Shown here in pieces: positions 1-12,410 of a stretch of DNA of 64,000 nucleotides. The notes below the pieces were generated by a model, which saw only the letters and a list, made by a program, of their open reading frames with translations, did not search any database and was not told where the DNA came from. Both the position numbers and the translations under genes were made by a program. The stretch is from Elusimicrobiota bacterium (lineage in GTDB: Bacteria; Elusimicrobiota; Elusimicrobia; UBA1565; UBA9628): positions 59,000 through 122,999 of the forward strand of contig JACPFR010000044.1 of the NCBI GenBank assembly GCA_016182905.1, read 5' to 3'. Numbering within the stretch: the first letter of the stretch is position 1; each line of letters opens with the position of its first letter.

Positions 1-1332
1 AACGGGAGTTCTGTCGCTCTTGTCGACCTCCACCGTCTCGCCACCGAGACGGTGGACGTCGAAGGCTTTGGCGAAATCGTTCTTCACCGCATCGACTCCG
101 AAGTTCAAGATCGGACTTCCCAACTTCGCGGAATCACGTGGTGGGTGAAGGGGCGCATGGTGGGCGATCCCTCCTGGGAAGGCCTGGATGGTGAGGGCAA
201 CTACCTCGACGGCCGCACTACGCTCGCCAAGCGGTTCAGCTTCGTGGTCGAGGCGGACATCCTGAAGGACTCTGTGAAGGCTGACTGGGTGGCCTTCCGG
301 GCATCTCCGAAGGTCGAGGCGGTCCGCGAGGCGGTCCACACGCGCATCATCCATGCCCTGAACCTGGTTCAGGCCGAGAACAGGCGCGAGCGCAAGCGTG
401 CGACGCTCGCCCAACACCGCCAGCTCCTGGGCGAGTTGTCCATCACCTCGAAGCGCTACGTCGGGCAATTCATCGACGAGCTTCAGGAGAAATGTCCAAC
501 CATTTCGGAGAAGGATTTAGCCCGGACTGTCGAAATCTACGCGAAGATGGAACAGACCACCTCGGGCTACGACCTTTTGGGCCAGTTGGCTGCGTGTTCG
601 CCTGAGGACATCGACAAGTGGAACGGACTCATGAAGCAGTGGTCCGCGGGACACGCAGAGATTGTCCTTAACGAACTCGAGCGCCGCCTCAAGCTGATCG
701 CCAAGCTCCAGGATCTCGTTGAGACGGTGAAGACGGACGAGCTTCACGATCTCCAACCCTTGTTCGAGCGCGGGCTGTGGATGTTCGGCCCGGAATACGA
801 GGCGGTCGACTTCCACTCCAATCGAGGCCTGGCGACCATCGTCCGGGAATCCCTCGGAGGTACCACCAAGAACGTCGGTCGCGGCCGCCCTGATTTTGTG
901 GCTCTCCCGGAACGATCTATTGGCGTCTACGCGGCCGCCTCGTTTGGGCAAGACGGAGAGGTTTCAGGCGTCCGGAAGATCTTGATCGTTGAGTTGAAGA
1001 AAGGTGGCTTCGACTTGAAGCAGGGTGAGGTCGATCAGGCAAAGCGCTACGCCAAGGCGCTCCGCAAGGCCGGTGACGTGACTGCCGGGACCGTCATCAG
1101 CGCCATCGTTTTGGGCGCTACGATGGAAGCTGATCTGGACCCGGAGAAGATCGGCGATGCCACGTTCATCGAGCCCATGCTCTACCGTACGTTGCTCACC
1201 AGAGCTCACCAGCGCACCTTCAACCTTCAAAAGCGCCTGGAGGCTTCGGGTGCCAAGAGGCCTGTAGACACCGACGTCGAGTCGGTTCTCGAAGAAAAGG
1301 AGCTGCCCCTCAAAGACTCTGTTCGGGCCTAA
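1..1332 (+). CDS. 5'-truncated protein with C-terminal PD-(D/E)xK-like nuclease motif (possible defence nuclease, Shedu/DUF4263-like?)
   Basis: Frame 1 is open from base 1, so the gene continues upstream of the window. C-terminal GRPDFVAL...QDGEVSGVRKILIVELKKG fits a D-x13-E-x-K restriction-endonuclease-like motif. The gene sits beside the AbiE pair and a tRNA. Confidence 0.55.
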   Translation, partial: NGSSVALVDLHRLATETVDVEGFGEIVLHRIDSEVQDRTSQLRGITWWVKGRMVGDPSWEGLDGEGNYLDGRTTLAKRFSFVVEADILKDSVKADWVAFRASPKVEAVREAVHTRIIHALNLVQAENRRERKRATLAQHRQLLGELSITSKRYVGQFIDELQEKCPTISEKDLARTVEIYAKMEQTTSGYDLLGQLAACSPEDIDKWNGLMKQWSAGHAEIVLNELERRLKLIAKLQDLVETVKTDELHDLQPLFERGLWMFGPEYEAVDFHSNRGLATIVRESLGGTTKNVGRGRPDFVALPERSIGVYAAASFGQDGEVSGVRKILIVELKKGGFDLKQGEVDQAKRYAKALRKAGDVTAGTVISAIVLGATMEADLDPEKIGDATFIEPMLYRTLLTRAHQRTFNLQKRLEASGAKRPVDTDVESVLEEKELPLKDSVRA

Positions 1333-1344
1333 CTTCCTTGTCCG

Positions 1345-1368
1345 TCGGGAAAACAACTCATTCCCGAC
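1345..1368 (+). other. Stem-loop (GTCGGGAA / TTCCCGAC) 13 nt after the stop of the first gene; no U-tract
   Basis: 8-bp perfect stem with 8-nt loop seen directly in the sequence. It is not followed by a T-run, so its function as an intrinsic terminator is uncertain. Confidence 0.25.
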
Positions 1369-1453
1369 AGGCCAGATCGCGCAGCCGTTCTTGACGGAGC
1401 CGATCGGTCAGAATTCCAGGGATTGCAGACCGAATCGGATCGAAACAAAAGGC

Positions 1454-1514
1454 TTGACATAATCATTGTCCAGATCAATAATACCTATAGATAGTTTTAT
1501 ATATAGGTATTATT
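1454..1514 (+). promoter_or_regulatory. Promoter (TTGACA-17-AATAAT) overlapping a 13-bp perfect inverted repeat AATAATACCTATA-N12-TATAGGTATTATT; candidate AbiEi autoregulatory operator
   Basis: TTGACA at 1454-1459 and AATAAT at 1477-1482. Inverted-repeat arms at 1477-1489 and 1502-1514 end 4 nt before the abiEi ATG. AbiEi proteins are known to autorepress via inverted repeats in their promoter. Confidence 0.6.
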
Positions 1515-1518
1515 ATCC

Positions 1519-2121
1519 ATGCCCCGAGAATTCACCCGCCAACTCGACATCTTCAAAGCACACCGCGGCGGACTTCATTCGTCCGAAGCCATGCGCCTGG
1601 GAATCCATCCCAGGGCTCTTTATGCCATGCGCGACGCCGGGCTCATTGAAAGGCTCGGCCGCGGACTCTACCGATTCGCAAAAGCTCCCCCGCTCTCAAA
1701 TCCCGATCTGGTCACGGTTGCCCTCAGGGTCCCCAAAGGCATCGTCTGCCTGATCTCCGCGCTCTCCTTCCACGACATCACGACTCAGGTTCCGCATGCG
1801 GTCCATATCGCCCTGCCCTTCGGCACGGAGCGGCCGCGGCTCGATTCCCCTCCTACGCGTTTCTCTTGGTTCAAAGAGCCCGCCTATGGCAGCGGCGCCG
1901 AGACGCACAAGATCGACGGCGTCCACATCCGCGTCTACTCACCGGAGAAGACGGTGGCCGACTGCTTCAAGTTCCGCAACAAGATCGGCCTCGATGTGGC
2001 GCTCGAGGCACTGAAGCTGTGCCTCAAGAAGAAGCGCTCCAAGCCGGATGAACTGCTGAAGTACGCCCGCATCTGCCGCGTCGAGAAAGTCATGCGCCCC
2101 TACCTCGAGGCCCTGCTGTGA
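1519..2121 (+). CDS. abiEi: AbiEi-type antitoxin / transcriptional regulator of a type IV toxin-antitoxin (abortive infection) system
   Basis: 200-aa protein with AbiEi_4-like N-terminal wHTH region (HSSEAMRLGIHPRALYAMRDAGLIERLGRGLYRF). It overlaps the downstream nucleotidyltransferase gene by 4 bp. Confidence 0.8.
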   Translation: MPREFTRQLDIFKAHRGGLHSSEAMRLGIHPRALYAMRDAGLIERLGRGLYRFAKAPPLSNPDLVTVALRVPKGIVCLISALSFHDITTQVPHAVHIALPFGTERPRLDSPPTRFSWFKEPAYGSGAETHKIDGVHIRVYSPEKTVADCFKFRNKIGLDVALEALKLCLKKKRSKPDELLKYARICRVEKVMRPYLEALL

Positions 2122-3029
2122 AAAAACCGCTCAAGAACGTTGCCGCGTCAGTCCGGCAAAAACTCGCCAACCTCGCAAAAGAATCGAAGCGCCCGTTCGC
2201 CGAAATCCTTCAGTACTATGCGATGGAGCGGTTCCTTTATCGGCTCAGCCGGTCGGAATACAAGGATCGCCTCGTGCTCAAGGGCGCGCTGATGTTCGTC
2301 GCCTGGGGCACCCCGCGCTCGCGCGCCACCAAGGATATAGACCTCCTGGCGCGGACGGAAAATTCGATCGCGAATTTGGTGAAAGTCATCCAAGACATCT
2401 GCCGCATCGAAATCGAAACGGACGGAATCGTATTCGATCCGGCGCTCGTGAAGGGCGAGAAGATCAAAGAGGACGTGGATTATGAGGGCGTCCGGCTTCT
2501 ATTCCAGGGGAAGCTGGAACAAGCCCGTATTCATATGCAGATCGACGTCGGCTTCGGCGACAGCGTGACTCCGGCGCCGGCCGCGATCGACTACCCCGTG
2601 ATCCTCGATCTGCCCGCGCCGAAGCTCAAGGGCTACCCGCCGGAGACGGTGGTCGCGGAGAAGTTCGAGGCCATGGTCAAGCTCGGCATGATCAACACCC
2701 GAATGAAGGACTTCTATGATCTTTGGCTGCTGAGTCGTCAGTTCGACTTCGACGGCGAAACGCTGGCCGAGGCGATCCGGACGACCTTCGCGCACCGCGG
2801 CACGACTCTCACGCCAACGCCCACGGCGTTCACGTCCGCGTTCCACGAGGAGAAGCAGCCGCAATGGCGCGCGTTCCTTTCGCGCACGGGCCTCACCGGC
2901 GCGCCGGAGTCGCTCAAGGAGACTATCGCTCCCATCAAAGAATTCCTCATCCCAATCGCTGAGGCAGGCATGGTGGACCGAAAATTCTCCATGCGCTGGG
3001 CGACGCTGGGACCGTGGAAAGCCAAATGA
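2118..3029 (+). CDS. abiEii: AbiEii-type toxin, nucleotidyltransferase (DUF1814)
   Basis: 303 aa. N-terminal nucleotidyltransferase-fold motifs (GALMFVAWGTPRSRATKDIDLL). ATGA/GTGA start-stop overlap with abiEi. Confidence 0.8.
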   Translation: MKKPLKNVAASVRQKLANLAKESKRPFAEILQYYAMERFLYRLSRSEYKDRLVLKGALMFVAWGTPRSRATKDIDLLARTENSIANLVKVIQDICRIEIETDGIVFDPALVKGEKIKEDVDYEGVRLLFQGKLEQARIHMQIDVGFGDSVTPAPAAIDYPVILDLPAPKLKGYPPETVVAEKFEAMVKLGMINTRMKDFYDLWLLSRQFDFDGETLAEAIRTTFAHRGTTLTPTPTAFTSAFHEEKQPQWRAFLSRTGLTGAPESLKETIAPIKEFLIPIAEAGMVDRKFSMRWATLGPWKAK

Positions 3030-3063
3030 CATCCGGTCTCCCGGACTGGCCTACACGTCGATA

Positions 3064-3093
3064 TTGCGAACAACGCGCTAAAACTGGCATAAT
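3064..3093 (+). promoter_or_regulatory. Sigma70-like promoter TTGCGA-18-CATAAT upstream of tRNA-Phe
   Basis: Hexamers at 3064-3069 and 3088-3093. Followed by a 10-bp direct repeat ATCTCGACAA x2 (3121-3142) before the tRNA. Confidence 0.3.
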
Positions 3094-3211
3094 CGCCCGT
3101 CGGCATCCGATTTCCGTTTCATCTCGACAAGGATCTCGACAAAAATTCGGCGGAAGAGGCCCGATTCGGGTCGTGACGGGTCGAAATTCTGCTGAGATTT
3201 TTTATAGATTC

Positions 3212-3286
3212 GGCGGGGTAGCTCAGTGGTAGAGCACCGGTCTGAAAAACCGGGTGTCGACAGTTCGATCCTGTCCCCCGCCACCA
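3212..3286 (+). tRNA. tRNA-Phe: tRNA-Phe (anticodon GAA), CCA encoded
   Basis: GGCGGGG acceptor stem pairing with CCCCGCC. D-arm TAGCTCAGTGGTAGAGC. Anticodon loop CTGAAAA with GAA at positions 34-36. T-arm GTTCGATCC. 3' CCA present. Confidence 0.9.
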
Positions 3287-3290
3287 TTTT

Positions 3291-3725
3291 TTGAAGCGCG
3301 CTATTCCCATCGCCGTCGTCGCGGTCCTCGCGTCCTGGGCGCTCGCCCAGACCGCCGCGGCTCCCGTCGTGAGATCCGCCTCGCAGGTCGACTGGAAAGC
3401 CTCGGGCAGCCTCCCGCCCGGCGCCGAGTACCACCTGATCTACGAGGACCCCAAGACGCACGCGGTGCAGACGTTGGTGCGCTTTCCCCGGGGCTACGCC
3501 CTGTCCCCGCACTCGCATACCGCCGACGAGACCATCCTCGTGCTGAAAGGCAAGCTCGTCATCGAGCTCGCGGGGAAGAAGGAGACCTTGACCGCCGGCG
3601 CCTACGCGATGCTCCCCGGCGGCACGGTCTTCTCCCTTAAGGCTGCCGGCTTCGGCGGCGCGGACTTCCTCGCCGCCTTCAACGGGCCCTTCGACATGAA
3701 GGCCGCCCCCGCCTCCTCCAACTAG
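3291..3725 (+). CDS. Secreted cupin-domain protein
   Basis: TTG start 4 nt after the tRNA. Signal peptide MKRAIPIAVVAVLASWALAQ. Cupin motifs (LVRFPRGYALSPHSHTADETILVLKGKL ... AYAMLPGG). Confidence 0.6.
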   Translation: MKRAIPIAVVAVLASWALAQTAAAPVVRSASQVDWKASGSLPPGAEYHLIYEDPKTHAVQTLVRFPRGYALSPHSHTADETILVLKGKLVIELAGKKETLTAGAYAMLPGGTVFSLKAAGFGGADFLAAFNGPFDMKAAPASSN

Positions 3726-4639
3726 AGACGGAAGGGGATCGCCTTCGGAAGGACCTCGAACACGACGGGCGCCGTCCCGTCCGCGTCCCCGTCGATGTTG
3801 AGCGGCAGGGGCTCCTCGGAGTGTATCTCGACGCGGCGCGCGCGCCGCAGGACGACGCCGGGACGGCCGGCGTGTCCGCCCGAATACGCCCGGGGCAGCA
3901 GCGACATCAGCTCCGGACGCGTCATGTCGCCGATCGTGAGCAGGTCGAGCAGCCCGTCCTCCGCGTCCGCCTGCGGGGCGAGCCTCATGCCCCCGCCGAA
4001 GGTGCTCGTGTTGGCCGCGGCCACGAGGTGGTAGCGCGCCGCCGGCTCCGCGACGCCGTCGACCGTGAGGCGCATGCTCCGCGCCTTCGCCGTCGCCACG
4101 GACAGCACGCCCTCGACGAGATAGGTCAAGGTGCCGCCGAGGAACTTACCGCGCGCGGCCACGGACAGCGCCACGTCGCCGGGCAGCCCGAGCGCCGCGA
4201 CGTTGAGGAAGTGCCGGGAGCGCGGCGCGCCGTCCGCCGCGCGGAAGGTCGCGCGCCCCGCGTCGAGGCGCCGGCGCTTGCCCTCGGCGAAAGCCTTGGC
4301 CCATGCCTCGGGCTCTCGCGGCACGCCCATGTGATTGGCGAAGTCGCAGCCCGACCCGGCGGGGAAGGTCGCGAGGACCGTGTTGCGGCGCACATGCTCG
4401 GGCACCGCGAGGAAGCCGTCGACGACCTCGCCGAGGGTGCCGTCGCCGCCGACCGCGACGATGAGCTCCATGCCGTCCGCCGTCGCCTGCCGCGTCAGCT
4501 CCCGCCCGTGCCCCGGCTTCTCGGTGCGCGCCAGCTCCAGGTCCGGGAAAAGGTCCTTGGCGAGCGCGCGGGCCCTGTCCCAGCGCCCCCCCGCCCGCCC
4601 GTGCCCCGCCGCCGGATTGACTATGAACAGCGTTCTCAT
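3722..4639 (-). CDS. Diacylglycerol-kinase catalytic-domain family lipid kinase (YegS/BmrU-like)
   Basis: MRTLFIVNPAAGHGRA ... IVAVGGDGTLGEVVDG is the DAGK_cat signature. 305 aa. Confidence 0.8.
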   Translation of the reverse strand: MRTLFIVNPAAGHGRAGGRWDRARALAKDLFPDLELARTEKPGHGRELTRQATADGMELIVAVGGDGTLGEVVDGFLAVPEHVRRNTVLATFPAGSGCDFANHMGVPREPEAWAKAFAEGKRRRLDAGRATFRAADGAPRSRHFLNVAALGLPGDVALSVAARGKFLGGTLTYLVEGVLSVATAKARSMRLTVDGVAEPAARYHLVAAANTSTFGGGMRLAPQADAEDGLLDLLTIGDMTRPELMSLLPRAYSGGHAGRPGVVLRRARRVEIHSEEPLPLNIDGDADGTAPVVFEVLPKAIPFRL

Positions 4640-4832: not shown

Positions 4833-6113
<1,281 letters not shown>

Positions 6114-6182
6114 TTTGTTCTCCCCTTAGCTCCGTTGAGGGGACCCGGAGCGGGTCTTTCGTCTGCGCCTATTATGGGCGGA

Positions 6183-6290
6183 AGGCCTACTTCCGCCCTG
6201 AGGCATAAGGCCTAGCACCGTCTAGGCCTAAAGGCCTATGCCCTAGGTCCTACGTCTCGAACGCGTAGGCCCTCTTCCTGGGTCCTAACG
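6183..6290. repeat. Array of short AGGCCTA / palindromic TAGGCCTA motifs (4 perfect, 3 degenerate copies) between the two S8 genes
   Basis: AGGCCTA at 6184, 6208, 6224 and 6232. Variants AGGTCCTA, TAGGCCC and GGTCCTA follow. The same motif recurs at 7569-7575 and 7607-7613, upstream of the second S8 gene. Confidence 0.6.
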
Positions 6291-7502
6291 AACGAGCTTG
6301 GCCGCGTCCACGACGCCGGCGCCCTGCTCGGACGCGGAAAGTCCGGGAACCTTGACGGCCGCGCGGCGCAGCGCCGCGCGGACGGCGGCTTCGCCGTGAG
6401 CGCCGCGGGCGACCGCGAGGGCGCCCAGGCCCGCCATGTGGGGCGTCGCCATCGACGTCCCCGCGTAGTTGTCGTAGCCGCCGCCGGGGACCGAGGACTT
6501 CACGTCCACGCCCGGCGCGATGAAGGCGACCTGATTGCCGCGGCTGGAGAATTTGGCGATCGTCTCGTTCGGGGCGAGCGCGGAGACCGTGATCGCCTCG
6601 GGATACGCGCCCGGGTAGTTGACCGAGCCGCCGTCGTTGCCCGCGGCCGCGAACACGGCCACGCCGCGCACCGTCGCGTACTTGAGGGCGGCGCGCATGA
6701 AGATCGTGCCCATCGGGGCGCCGAGGCTCATGTTGGCGACGTCCATCTTGTTGTTGCCGCACCAGATCAGGCCCTTGATGATGGAGGTGAGCCCGCCCGC
6801 CCCGTCCTTGTCGAGGACCTTGACCGCGTACAGGCGCGCCTTCGGGGCCACGCCGACGACGCCCTGGCCGTTGAGGACGCCCGCGATCGTGCCGGCGACG
6901 TGCGAGCCGTGAGCGTTGTCGTCCATCGGCGGCTTCTTCGGATCGAGCGCGTTGTAGCCTCCGGCGCAGTTGGCCTTGAGGTCGGGATGGCCGCAGTCGA
7001 TGCCGGTGTCGATGACCGCGACCTTCACGCCCTCGCCCTTCGTGACGGCCCAGGCGGCGGGAGCGTCGACCCGGGCGATGCCCCACGGGACCTCGGCGGC
7101 GTCCACGCCCGCCGGAAGCGGGAAGACGGGGCGCGCCGGCGGAGCGGCGACGGCGGGAAGGGCGGCGCGGACGGACTCATAAGAAGGAAAGGGCGCGTGG
7201 AAGACGGGGGCCTCGAGCAGCCAGTTCCTATATATGTCCTCCTGCACCTCGAGGACCTCGGGCATGGCGGCGGCCTTCTCGGCGAAGGCCGAGAACATCT
7301 TGGCCTCGGGGAGCAGGGCGACGAGCGCGCCGATCTCGGAGAGATCGTCGGCCTTGGTCGCGCCGAGCTCGCGCAGGGCGGCCTCGCGCTGGGCGGGGGT
7401 CGTGCCGTCCCTGAACGCGATCAGATAGCGCTTGGCGCCCGCGGCGGACGCGCACACCGGCAGCAGCACGGCGAGAATCGACAACGCGATCAGTTTTTTC
7501 AT
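6285..7502 (-). CDS. Secreted subtilisin-like serine protease (peptidase S8), paralog of 4833..6113
   Basis: Start placed at MKKLIALSILAVLL with AGGAGG ribosome-binding site. The longer 691-aa ORF is an upstream extension. Motifs VAVIDTGIDCGHPDL, HGSHVAGTIAG, GTSMATPHMAG. Confidence 0.88.
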   Translation of the reverse strand: MKKLIALSILAVLLPVCASAAGAKRYLIAFRDGTTPAQREAALRELGATKADDLSEIGALVALLPEAKMFSAFAEKAAAMPEVLEVQEDIYRNWLLEAPVFHAPFPSYESVRAALPAVAAPPARPVFPLPAGVDAAEVPWGIARVDAPAAWAVTKGEGVKVAVIDTGIDCGHPDLKANCAGGYNALDPKKPPMDDNAHGSHVAGTIAGVLNGQGVVGVAPKARLYAVKVLDKDGAGGLTSIIKGLIWCGNNKMDVANMSLGAPMGTIFMRAALKYATVRGVAVFAAAGNDGGSVNYPGAYPEAITVSALAPNETIAKFSSRGNQVAFIAPGVDVKSSVPGGGYDNYAGTSMATPHMAGLGALAVARGAHGEAAVRAALRRAAVKVPGLSASEQGAGVVDAAKLVR

Positions 7503-7629
7503 GACTCCTCTAAACGTCGTCTCAGAAGTACCGTCGACGATTCCGAATCTAGCATACTCCGGTCCGAAAGGCCTAGTCGAATTTGGGTCCAATAGGTCAC
7601 TATTTTTAGGCCCTCCGTCCCGGGCCGTA

Positions 7630-7658
7630 TTGACGCCGTCGCGGACGCGGTCTATACT
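7630..7658 (+). promoter_or_regulatory. Sigma70-like promoter TTGACG-17-TATACT ending 6 nt before the ATG at 7665 (predicted leaderless mRNA)
   Basis: Hexamers at 7630-7635 and 7653-7658. The ATG lies 7 nt downstream of the -10 element and no Shine-Dalgarno sequence is possible. Confidence 0.45.
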
Positions 7659-7664
7659 GACCTG

Positions 7665-8387
7665 ATGATCGAATACCTCGCCGCGCTCTCGCTCCTCGCC
7701 GTCGCCGCGCCCGCCCTCGCCCAGCCCGCCGCCGATCCGCCGCTCGTGGACGCCGTCAAGGCGGGAGACGCCGCGGGCCTGAAGGCGCGCCTCGCCGCGG
7801 GAGCGGACCTCGGGGCCAAGGACGCCCACGGCTGGACCGCGGTGATGTGGGCCGCGGGGCACGCCGACGGGGCGACGCTGAAGGCCTTGCTGGACGCGGG
7901 GGCGGACCCCGCGCCGAAGGACGAGCCCGGCTGGTCGGCGATCGTCGAGGCCGCGAAGGGCGGCAAGGCGGCGAACGTCGCCCTGCTCGCCGCGAAAGGC
8001 CTCGACTGCTCGGCCAAGGACTCCGCCGGGGTCCCCGCGCTCGCCTACGCGGCGGCGGTCTCGACGCCGGCCGTCTCGGCCCTGCTCGCGTGCAAGGCCA
8101 AGGTCGACGCGCGCGACTCGAACGGGCTCACGGCGCTGACCCGCGCCGCCCAGCTCGGCCGCGCCGCCGCGGCGGGCCGGCTCATCGCGGCCGGCGCCAA
8201 GGTCGACGCGAAGGACGCCCTCGGCTACACCGCCTTGATGTGGGCCGCCCACGGCGGCTGGACCGACACGGTGAAGACGCTCCTCGCGGCGAAGGCGGAT
8301 CCGAAGCTGAAGAGCGGCGACGGTCTGACGGCGCGGGAGCTCGCCCTCAAGCGCGGCCACGCCGCGGCCGCGGACCTCCTGGAATAG
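7665..8387 (+). CDS. Secreted ankyrin-repeat protein
   Basis: Signal peptide MIEYLAALSLLAVAAPALA. Roughly six ANK repeats (GWTAVMWAAGHADGATLKALLDAGADP, GYTALMWAAHGGWTDTVKTLLAAKADP and others). Confidence 0.8.
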   Translation: MIEYLAALSLLAVAAPALAQPAADPPLVDAVKAGDAAGLKARLAAGADLGAKDAHGWTAVMWAAGHADGATLKALLDAGADPAPKDEPGWSAIVEAAKGGKAANVALLAAKGLDCSAKDSAGVPALAYAAAVSTPAVSALLACKAKVDARDSNGLTALTRAAQLGRAAAAGRLIAAGAKVDAKDALGYTALMWAAHGGWTDTVKTLLAAKADPKLKSGDGLTARELALKRGHAAAADLLE

Positions 8388-9698: not shown

Positions 9699-9890
9699 AT
9701 GAAGAAAACACTGGCGAAGTCGGTCCGGCACCACAAGGTTTCCTCTCGGAAAGCGAAGGGCGGCAAGGCGCTTGAGTTCGAGCAGGGCTGGAACGAGCTC
9801 GAGGCGCAGCATGACCGCCTGAAGACCGATTGGATGAGCCTCGCGGTCCAGCTCGGGATCGGCGGATCCGATAAAGCGGCTTACGACTAG
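9699..9890 (+). CDS. Small hypothetical protein (63 aa)
   Basis: ATG with GAGGA 7 nt upstream. Codon usage is unlike the flanking spurious ORFs. No recognisable domain. Confidence 0.35.
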   Translation: MKKTLAKSVRHHKVSSRKAKGGKALEFEQGWNELEAQHDRLKTDWMSLAVQLGIGGSDKAAYD

Positions 9891-11174: not shown

Positions 11175-12410
11175 TTAGATCATCTCCAGCAGGGCGAAGT
11201 GCAGGTACTCCGTCTCCGGCATCGACAGCAGGATCGGATGGTCGAGCGCCTGGCCGCGCAAAGTCACGAAGCGCATCGGCCGCTCGGCCTTCGCCTGCGC
11301 GTTGCGCAGCATCAGCACGAAGTCCTCGCGCGAGACGTGATGCGAGCACGTCGCCGTGACGAGCAGGCCGCCCTTGGGCAGGGCGCGCATCGCCTGGGCG
11401 TTGAGCTTCGTGTACAGGCGCAGGGCCTGCGGCAGGTGCTTCTTGGCCGGCACGAGGCTCGGCGGGTCCAGCACGATCATGTCGGGCTTGAAGGGCTGCT
11501 GGCCGCGCGCGAACGACTCCAGCACCGTCTCCGCGTCGCCCTCGTCGGCCGACACGATCCCGTCCACGCCGTTGAACTTCGCGTTCTCCCGGGCGAGCTG
11601 CACCGCGGGGCCCGAGCTGTCGAGCGCGAGCACCGACTTCGCCCCGCCCTTGGCCGCGGCGATCGCGAAGCCGCCGGTGTAGCAGTACAGGTCGAGCACG
11701 CTGCGCCCCGAGAAGTAAGGCCGCAGGAAGGCGCGGTTCTCGCGCTGGTCGAAGTAGTGGCCGGTCTTCTGGCCCTCGCCGAGGGGCGCCGCGAAGCGCA
11801 GGCCGTTCTCCGTGATCGGAACGCGCTCGGGGACCGTGCCCGTCAAGGTCCGGCATTCGAGGGGAAGGCCCTCGAGGGCCCGCACCTTGTGGTCGTTCTT
11901 GAGGAAGATGCCCTTCGGCTTGACCAGCTCCTCGAGCGCGGCCTGGATCCACGGCATGCGGCGCTCGATGCCGGCGGACATCACCTGGAGCACGAGGTAC
12001 TGGCCGTAGCGGTCCACGACGAGACCGGGAAGCCCGTCCGACTCGCCGTAGCAGAGACGGTAGGACGTCTCGCCCGGCAGCGCCTTCTCCCGGTACGCGA
12101 TGGCCTCGGCCAGGCGCCGTCTGAAAAAGCCTTCGTCGATGATCTCTTTCGGGTCGCGGGTGATCACGCGGCCGCCGATGAGGCTGTTCGGGTTGTAGAA
12201 CGCCATGCCGAGCGAGGTCCCGCCGGCGGTCACGACGACGCCGAGGTCGCCCGGCACGGGAGGGTGGTCCGACAGGACCTCCTTGATCTCGTTGGAGAAG
12301 ATCCAGAGGTGCCCCGCCTTGACGCGCTTGTCGCGGTCCGGGTTGAGGATGATGCGCAGCGGCTTCTCGGCGACGGCGGCTTCGGGCGCGGCTTTGGCGG
12401 CGTCAGTCAT
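11175..12410 (-). CDS. Class I SAM-dependent 23S rRNA m5C methyltransferase (RlmI-like, PUA + methyltransferase domains)
   Basis: PUA-like N-terminus. SAM-binding motif VLDLYCYTGGFAIAAA and DPPS catalytic motif. 411 aa. Confidence 0.8.
   Translation of the reverse strand: MTDAAKAAPEAAVAEKPLRIILNPDRDKRVKAGHLWIFSNEIKEVLSDHPPVPGDLGVVVTAGGTSLGMAFYNPNSLIGGRVITRDPKEIIDEGFFRRRLAEAIAYREKALPGETSYRLCYGESDGLPGLVVDRYGQYLVLQVMSAGIERRMPWIQAALEELVKPKGIFLKNDHKVRALEGLPLECRTLTGTVPERVPITENGLRFAAPLGEGQKTGHYFDQRENRAFLRPYFSGRSVLDLYCYTGGFAIAAAKGGAKSVLALDSSGPAVQLARENAKFNGVDGIVSADEGDAETVLESFARGQQPFKPDMIVLDPPSLVPAKKHLPQALRLYTKLNAQAMRALPKGGLLVTATCSHHVSREDFVLMLRNAQAKAERPMRFVTLRGQALDHPILLSMPETEYLHFALLEMI

Follow-up and report, generated by a model that had tools for sequence, protein, structure and literature searches.

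Short palindromic boxes at conserved positions upstream of two tandem S8 peptidase genes in Elusimicrobiota: a putative operator array

Two neighbouring genes for secreted S8 peptidases in an Elusimicrobiota MAG are both preceded by copies of a short palindrome. Does this sequence represent a regulatory site that is common to the two genes, or is it an extragenic repeat without relation to them? A preliminary description of this DNA had proposed a shared transcription-factor binding array and had named a REP-like element as the alternative. The analysis covers the complete 64-kb stretch of DNA (referred to as the window, ~69% G+C) and a set of related loci. In their source records, the S8 proteins of the window are assigned to Elusimicrobiota MAGs. 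Two Logan assemblies hold loci that are identical to that of the window.

Organization of the locus

The two peptidases share 47% of their residues. Their genes are separated by a spacer of 171 bp (6114-6284), and the region 7503-7664 lies between gene 2 and a divergently oriented ankyrin-repeat gene (7665-8387), beyond which a TPR gene and an ORF of 63 aa are located. This order, with the ankyrin-repeat gene pointing away from gene 2 and gene 1 following gene 2, is kept in most related loci. The spacer had been described as being upstream of gene 1, which is correct, but as both genes are on the minus strand it is also located immediately downstream of gene 2.

4833..6113, minus strand: S8 gene 1, 426 aa, GTG start, signal peptide, Peptidase_S8 domain (Pfam PF00082, E = 1e-58)
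6285..7502, minus strand: S8 gene 2, 405 aa, signal peptide, Peptidase_S8 domain; TAG stop codon at 6285-6287
7630..7658, plus strand: divergent sigma-70 promoter TTGACG-17-TATACT of the ankyrin-TPR operon, found by promoter scan; the same type is conserved in relatives

The box array upstream of gene 1

The window has 11 copies of the heptamer AGGCCTA where 2.8 are expected, and none of 100 shuffled sequences reached this number. Plus-strand copies start at 6183, 6208, 6224 and 6232 in the spacer and at 7569 upstream of gene 2; the remaining five copies are singletons, all of them outside the called non-coding segments. When TAGG and CCTA are counted in a sliding window of 171 bp, the spacer has 11 occurrences and the runner-up site in the 64 kb has 4. 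The four spacer copies that had been reported are thus present, all within 56 bp (6183-6238), and so are the degenerate copies (6165-6171, 6244-6252, 6266-6272 and 6281-6287), the first of which reads GCGCCTA on the plus strand. Two copies had been taken for the perfect 8-bp palindrome. This holds for only one of the four, TAGGCCTA at 6223-6230. The other three are AAGGCCTA, or TAGGCCTT when the coding strand is read. In the direction of transcription of gene 1, the following elements could be annotated:

6281..6287, minus strand: box overlapping the gene 2 stop codon, TAGGACC (plus strand GGTCCTA), from the spacer alignment
6266..6272, minus strand: upstream box GGGCCTA (plus strand TAGGCCC); GGGCCYA is conserved in relatives
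6244..6252, minus strand: box 0, 9-bp variant TAGGACCTA (plus strand TAGGTCCTA); (R)AGGRCCTA in 15/17 loci
6231..6238, minus strand: box 1, coding-strand sequence TAGGCCTT, directly joined to box 2; TAGGNCNT in 17/17 aligned loci
6223..6230, minus strand: box 2, TAGGCCTA, from sequence and alignment
6207..6214, minus strand: box 3, TAGGCCTT, 8 bp past box 2, third part of the box-box-N8-box module
6196..6206, minus strand: inter-box block ATGCCTCAGGG (YCATG in most relatives) with invariant C.CA.G columns; probably a weak -35 region, judged from its distance of ~17 bp to the -10 hexamer
6182..6189, minus strand: box 4, TAGGCCTT here and TGGGCCTT in most relatives, within the -35/-10 spacer and 5 bp before the -10 hexamer
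6171..6176, minus strand: predicted -10 hexamer of gene 1, CATAAT in 12/17 loci and CATACT, TATATT or CACAAT at the same alignment column in the others

Chance or compositional clustering of the boxes is excluded by the shuffles and by the simulations described below. Two further explanations regard the boxes as a cluster of methylation sites or as recognition elements of an alternative sigma factor. AGGCCT is a palindrome of the type recognized by type II restriction-modification systems, which would fit the former, but conserved box variants (TGGGCCT, TAGGTCT, TAGACCT) do not contain it, and the 34 AGGCCT sites in the window exceed the ~22 expected from base composition. Methylation or restriction avoidance is rejected because of these variants and because the site is not depleted. 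A sigma factor would account for the fixed distance of box 4 from the -10 hexamer at gene 1, but box-to--10 distances vary when gene 1, gene 2 and the targets in locus L020 (see below) are compared. We regard this group of explanations, taken together, as very improbable.

Conservation in related genomes

A genome scan with the gene 1 protein resulted in 18 Elusimicrobiota loci, and three more distant ones (L024-L026) were retrieved individually. Boxes were found at matching positions in ~20 related genomes with 61-98% protein identity. The alignment of the gene 1 upstream region comprises 17 loci, down to ~62% protein identity, which are orthologous and hence are not independent samples. Its most conserved columns are the boxes, which occur in a fixed order: boxes 1 and 2 abutting each other, a gap of 8 bp, box 3, the block GCCTCA(T/G)G, box 4, another 5 bp, and CATAAT. 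Box 3 and box 4 are spaced by 25 bp. The mean identity is 0.89 for the box and -10 columns and 0.73 for the inter-box columns, a comparison that is partly circular because the boxes were defined after the alignment had been inspected.

The four aligned box positions provide 68 instances with the consensus T-R-G-G-C-C-T-W (T 100%, R, G 100%, G 91%, C 82%, C 100%, T 78%, W), T1, G3 and C6 being the letters that never vary. There is also a 9-bp variant, TAGGNCCTA. Of the three distant loci (61-64% identity), L024 and L025 share this layout of the gene 1 upstream region, and L026, which is more diverged, is devoid of the three-box module.

Boxes and promoter upstream of gene 2

The two motif copies that had been reported upstream of gene 2 were both found, AAGGCCTA at 7568-7575, which includes AGGCCTA, and TAGGCCC at 7607-7613. 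They are part of a longer series of elements:

7593..7613, minus strand: distal boxes GACCTAT and GGGCCTA, followed by the A-tract GGGCCTAAAAATA; GGGCCTAAAAA is conserved
7584..7591, minus strand: box TGGACCCA (plus strand TGGGTCCA), 8 bp upstream of TAGGCCTT, completing a CCYA-N8-TAGGCCTT module
7560..7575, minus strand: abutting boxes TAGGCCTT (7568-7575) and TCGGACCG (7560-7567, plus strand CGGTCCGA), from the gene 2 upstream alignment
7546..7554, minus strand: predicted extended -10 element of gene 2, TGCTAGATT; ATGCTAGA shows little or no variation among 16 loci

On the plus strand, the distal boxes read TAGGTCA (7593-7599) and TAGGCCC (7607-7613), and the nearest box is 17 bp away from the -35 element of the divergent ankyrin-TPR promoter. 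The consensus of the 16 aligned loci consists of GGGCCTAAAAA, TRGRCCYA, aattcgac, TAGGCCTT directly joined to TCGGACC, and nnn(T/C)ATGCTAGA(T/A)T; the block TAGGCCTTTCGGACC is conserved. As TGn is followed by TAnnnT at a conserved place, the predicted promoter has the characteristics of an extended -10 promoter of the sigma-70 type. Under this reading, TAGGCCTT at 7568-7575 would be in the -35 position and TCGGACCG in the spacer. Locus L017 has TTGACTAGGCCTTTTAGACCTG at the place of the abutting boxes, and its -35 sequence is TTGACT.

That the motif is common to both paralogues had been claimed from the window. Window counts alone do not support this, as the gene 2 upstream region, with 3 TAGG/CCTA occurrences per 171 bp, does not stand out from the background of the window. 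The claim stands on the CCYA-N8-TAGGCCTT module and on conservation across species.

Specificity and occurrence elsewhere

A genome-wide intergenic-versus-coding count had been proposed, and a motif distributed uniformly or found at many unrelated intergenic sites would have spoken against a binding array. We counted TAGGCC/GGCCTA in ~388 kb comprising the window and related loci. Upstream of S8 genes there are 14.8 occurrences per kb, compared to 0.50 per kb in other non-coding DNA and 0.33 per kb in coding DNA. With a ~30-fold higher density before S8 genes than in the remaining non-coding DNA, the core motif is, in the sequences counted, concentrated at S8 promoters and neither uniform nor dispersed.

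The architecture is more specific still. The box-box-N8-box module has 23 matches in 401 kb, one per locus, where 0.05 are expected according to Markov simulations. Of the 22 high-G+C Elusimicrobiota sequences that were scanned, 19 have it, as do L093 and L139. Every match in the high-G+C loci is upstream of an S8 gene. The exception is L139, a contig with 52% G+C that had been included on account of its motif. For CCYA-N8-TAGGCCTT, there are 19 matches in related loci, including both promoters of the window, and every one of them is at an S8 promoter.

These results bear on the view that the boxes are REP- or MITE-like extragenic palindromes without a locus-specific function. It is true that we deal with a short G+C-rich palindrome with several copies in one intergenic region, as is typical for REP elements, and that another palindrome with AGGCCTA, GGTGTCAGGCCTAACG..., occurs in L004, L008 and L015. 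However, the motif is absent from all remaining non-coding segments of the window (~20), the enrichment at S8 promoters is 30-fold, and orthologous position and fixed architecture are conserved. REP elements are dispersed imperfect palindromes of 20-40 nt that form stem-loops, typically at gene 3′ ends, while the boxes are undispersed 8-bp units at promoters, and the three-box module is limited to S8 promoters in the high-G+C loci. For the sequences covered here, the REP-like alternative of the preliminary description was abandoned on these grounds, and we consider any explanation of this kind extremely improbable.

Clusters of at least four loose boxes are restricted to the promoters of gene 1 and gene 2, save for L020, where the S8 protein is more distant (52% identity). 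There, clusters are found at the S8 promoter and at two further promoters. Both additional genes encode proteins with a signal peptide, one being a secreted repeat protein of 301 aa and the other an ORF that begins with MKNKLMASLLLLLP. In L139, a box-box-N8-box-box arrangement precedes the gene for a signal-peptide protein of 825 aa, and in L093 the same layout precedes an S8 gene. The double-box/N8 clusters before signal-peptide genes other than S8 are at these positions:

L020, 6376-6490
L020, 18760-18885
L139, 8640-8700

A Pfam search assigned no family to the 301-aa protein or to the 825-aa protein, and no homologues of the 301-aa protein were detected at E <= 1e-10. The clusters hint at a wider regulon of secreted proteins. 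A metagenome scan for GGCCTA-N8-TAGGCCTT yielded at least 120 loci, almost all of which are chance matches in unrelated organisms (G+C 0.27-0.72). Among the matches listed, only L093 and L139 are informative, and the scan was of no use for delimiting the regulon.

The leader of gene 1 and a possible role of the spacer RNA

Downstream of the -10 hexamer, at a distance of ~7 bp, a conserved leader AGAC..AAGACC follows. A hairpin precedes the ribosome binding site:

6129-6151, minus strand: gene 1 leader hairpin GCTCCG...CGGAGC with loop CCCCUC, within the leader 6120..6151, from the alignment
6120-6127, minus strand: Shine-Dalgarno sequence of gene 1, AAGGGGAG, just downstream of the leader hairpin

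As RNA, the hairpin reads GCUCCG-GGUCCCCUCAA-CGGAGC. It is conserved, yet it is missing in L008, L011, L017 and L019. Because the loop sequence CCCCU is complementary to the Shine-Dalgarno sequence AAGGGGAG, the leader hairpin could control translation. Another hairpin, formed by GGCGGAAG and CTTCCGCC around box 4, was dropped as a general feature since it is conserved only inside the clade of the window.

Might the boxes themselves act at the RNA level? According to this explanation, gene 2 and gene 1 would be transcribed as a bicistronic mRNA, and the UAGGCCU repeats would form hairpins or protein sites that control processing, stability or translation of gene 1. No terminator was found in the spacer, and L017 has a promoter of the gene 2 type upstream of the gene 1 array, so that the array may be transcribed and there is room for such a role, to which the complementarity of the loop CCCCUC to the Shine-Dalgarno sequence would add. 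The spacer RNA also folds better than shuffled sequences (z = -2.4), but this is due to the palindromes and would be so for any set of palindromes. Structural covariation is nearly nil: for the 17 orthologous spacers, RNAalifold returned a covariation term of 0.12 kcal/mol with helices only between the palindromic boxes, and the changes within boxes (TAGGAC, TGGGCC, TAGACC, TAGGTC) are mostly uncompensated. An Rfam scan of 5900-7900 had no match at E <= 1. Moreover, the same boxes occur upstream of the gene 2 -10 element and hence in DNA that is not transcribed there, and palindromy fits sites in duplex DNA. We therefore regard an RNA element as unlikely. As the boxes are palindromic, are present in non-transcribed DNA upstream of the gene 2 -10 element and keep their positions relative to the -10 elements, a duplex DNA site for a symmetric protein is favoured.

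A proposed operator array

From the observed motif, architecture, conservation and specificity we infer the promoter assignments, the binding of a protein, its cooperativity and the sign of regulation. It seems fairly probable to us that the boxes form a cooperative operator array for a putative dimeric DNA-binding protein which probably represses both S8 genes. The shared transcription-factor binding array suggested previously has turned out to be the best-supported explanation, given positional conservation, palindromy, promoter overlap and the ~30-fold enrichment.

The boxes would be double-stranded DNA operator sites for a sequence-specific, probably dimeric, candidate regulator. At gene 1, the abutting pair, the 8-bp gap and the third box would constitute the module, with a fourth box placed between the weak -35 region and CATAAT. 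At gene 2, the CCYA-N8-TAGGCCTT module would set boxes over the -35 position and over the spacer of the extended -10 promoter TGCTAGATT. Occupancy of the boxes would most likely block RNA polymerase, which would result in joint repression of the two secreted proteases and in their co-induction once the repressor is released. The divergent ankyrin/TPR promoter might be affected as well by the distal boxes.

Alternatively, the boxes may be activator sites that bring RNA polymerase to two promoters of low intrinsic strength. The -35 region of gene 1 is indeed poor, a box occupies the -35 position of gene 2, neither S8 promoter passed a strict sigma-70 consensus scan, and the distal boxes are at roughly -50 to -85. 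However, box 4 at gene 1 and TCGGACCG at gene 2 are inside the -35/-10 spacer, a position typical for repressor sites, and an extended -10 promoter such as that of gene 2 does not need a -35 element. Activation is rather doubtful in our opinion. Because boxes are located within the core promoter, in the -35/-10 spacer, at both genes, repression by occlusion is the likelier mode of action for the proposed operator array.

To our knowledge, nothing has been reported experimentally on transcriptional regulation in the high-G+C uncultured Elusimicrobiota from groundwater and soil. The locus provides a defined cis-element with a consensus, an architecture, a promoter context and several targets, all of which encode secreted proteins. 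This element may be used for regulon reconstruction across MAGs and for a search for the regulator, be it through phylogenetic co-occurrence or with heterologous binding assays. As the proposed mechanism is a familiar one, the element is of value for annotation and as a starting point for studies of regulation in an uncultured phylum rather than for new concepts.

Comparison with known systems

Cooperative operators over promoters are a familiar design of bacterial switches, of which the array may be a lineage-specific case. A literature search for the string TAGGCCTA retrieved only primers and oligonucleotides and no known binding site. The closest resemblance in layout is to the 'metbox' operators of Escherichia coli, which have the consensus AGACGTCT, control methionine genes and are bound by MetJ, a ribbon-helix-helix repressor. 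Both systems have abutting tandem 8-bp palindromes in an 8-bp register (here TAGGCCTT and TAGGCCTA at 6223-6238), at least two boxes over promoters, and degenerate boxes interspersed. They differ in sequence (TRGGCCTW instead of AGACGTCT), in their targets, which are secreted proteases here, and in register, which is broken by the 25-bp spacing of boxes 3 and 4; no gene for MetJ or another ribbon-helix-helix protein was found in the locus. As the sequence differs and no cognate protein is known, we consider the likeness to MetJ a functional analogy and not membership.

CtsR operators, found upstream of clp protease genes in Firmicutes, are direct heptad repeats of GGTCAAA. Like the boxes, they are short repeated motifs over the -35/-10 region of protease genes and serve coordinated repression, as is proposed here. 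In contrast to the array described, they are direct heptad repeats, their proteases are cytoplasmic and the phylum is a different one. Cooperative reading, again as proposed here, of arrays with very short units in mixed orientation is also known from the heptad arrays of Omega (pSM19035) and the hexamer arrays of Fur. These differ from the boxes in unit length and sequence, and belong to plasmid or iron regulons.

A candidate regulator in the neighbourhood

No recognizable transcription-factor gene was found in the conserved neighbourhood, within +/-10 kb of the locus. The only conserved neighbour of the S8 genes that lacks an explanation is the 63-aa protein:

9699-9890, plus strand: 63-aa ORF, MKKTLAKS...GWNELEAQHDRLKTDWMSLAVQLGIGG..., with its own consensus promoter TTGACG-17-TATACT

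This protein is encoded divergently from the S8 genes in 17/17 loci whose flanks are long enough to tell, and likewise in L024-L026. Its gene directly adjoins the array in L013, L017 and L019. Homologues are confined to Elusimicrobiota, and searches of Pfam, NCBIfam and PDB gave no match. A structure model predicts a disordered basic N-terminal tail and one confident helix of ~30 residues (23-52) with an L/F/W heptad pattern (F27/L34/L41/L48). The basic tail is poorly conserved and is outside of the predicted helix. As the invariant residues are distributed over all helix faces and several of them are acidic, the helix looks more like a partner-binding than a DNA-reading element. That the 63-aa protein is the box-binding regulator, as a minimal bZIP-like factor, is a long shot. 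If it were, a minimal bacterial factor of this type would read palindromes of 8 and 9 bp and control a small regulon of secreted proteins.

Other features of the analysed loci

The different palindrome with AGGCCTA mentioned above has the form GGTGTCAGGCCTAACGTTA...TAACGTTAGGCCTGACACC. Its sites are L004 4755-4835, L008 ~1450-1480 and L015 ~11395-11420, and in L008 and L015 it is positioned right after the terminator-like hairpin of gene 1.

Directly downstream of gene 1, the window codes for a stand-alone Cupin_7 protein (ChrR-like cupin, 3291-3725, plus strand) and for a lipid kinase of the YegS/DAGK type (3722-4639, minus strand). The pair is found at the equivalent place in L024 and L025, in the latter with a few genes in between, and is missing in L026.

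An origin of replication near 40-44 kb was considered and rejected, as the flanking genes code for a Mur ligase and a C39/NlpC-P60 peptidase and not for DnaA.

At the start of the window (1-3300), G+C drops to 0.58-0.60 compared to ~0.70 elsewhere. This stretch is upstream of a tRNA-Phe gene (3212-3286) and may represent an island or an integrated element beside the tRNA gene. Within it, an AT-rich palindrome, aataatacctatagatag...tatataggtattatt, is located near 1470-1510.
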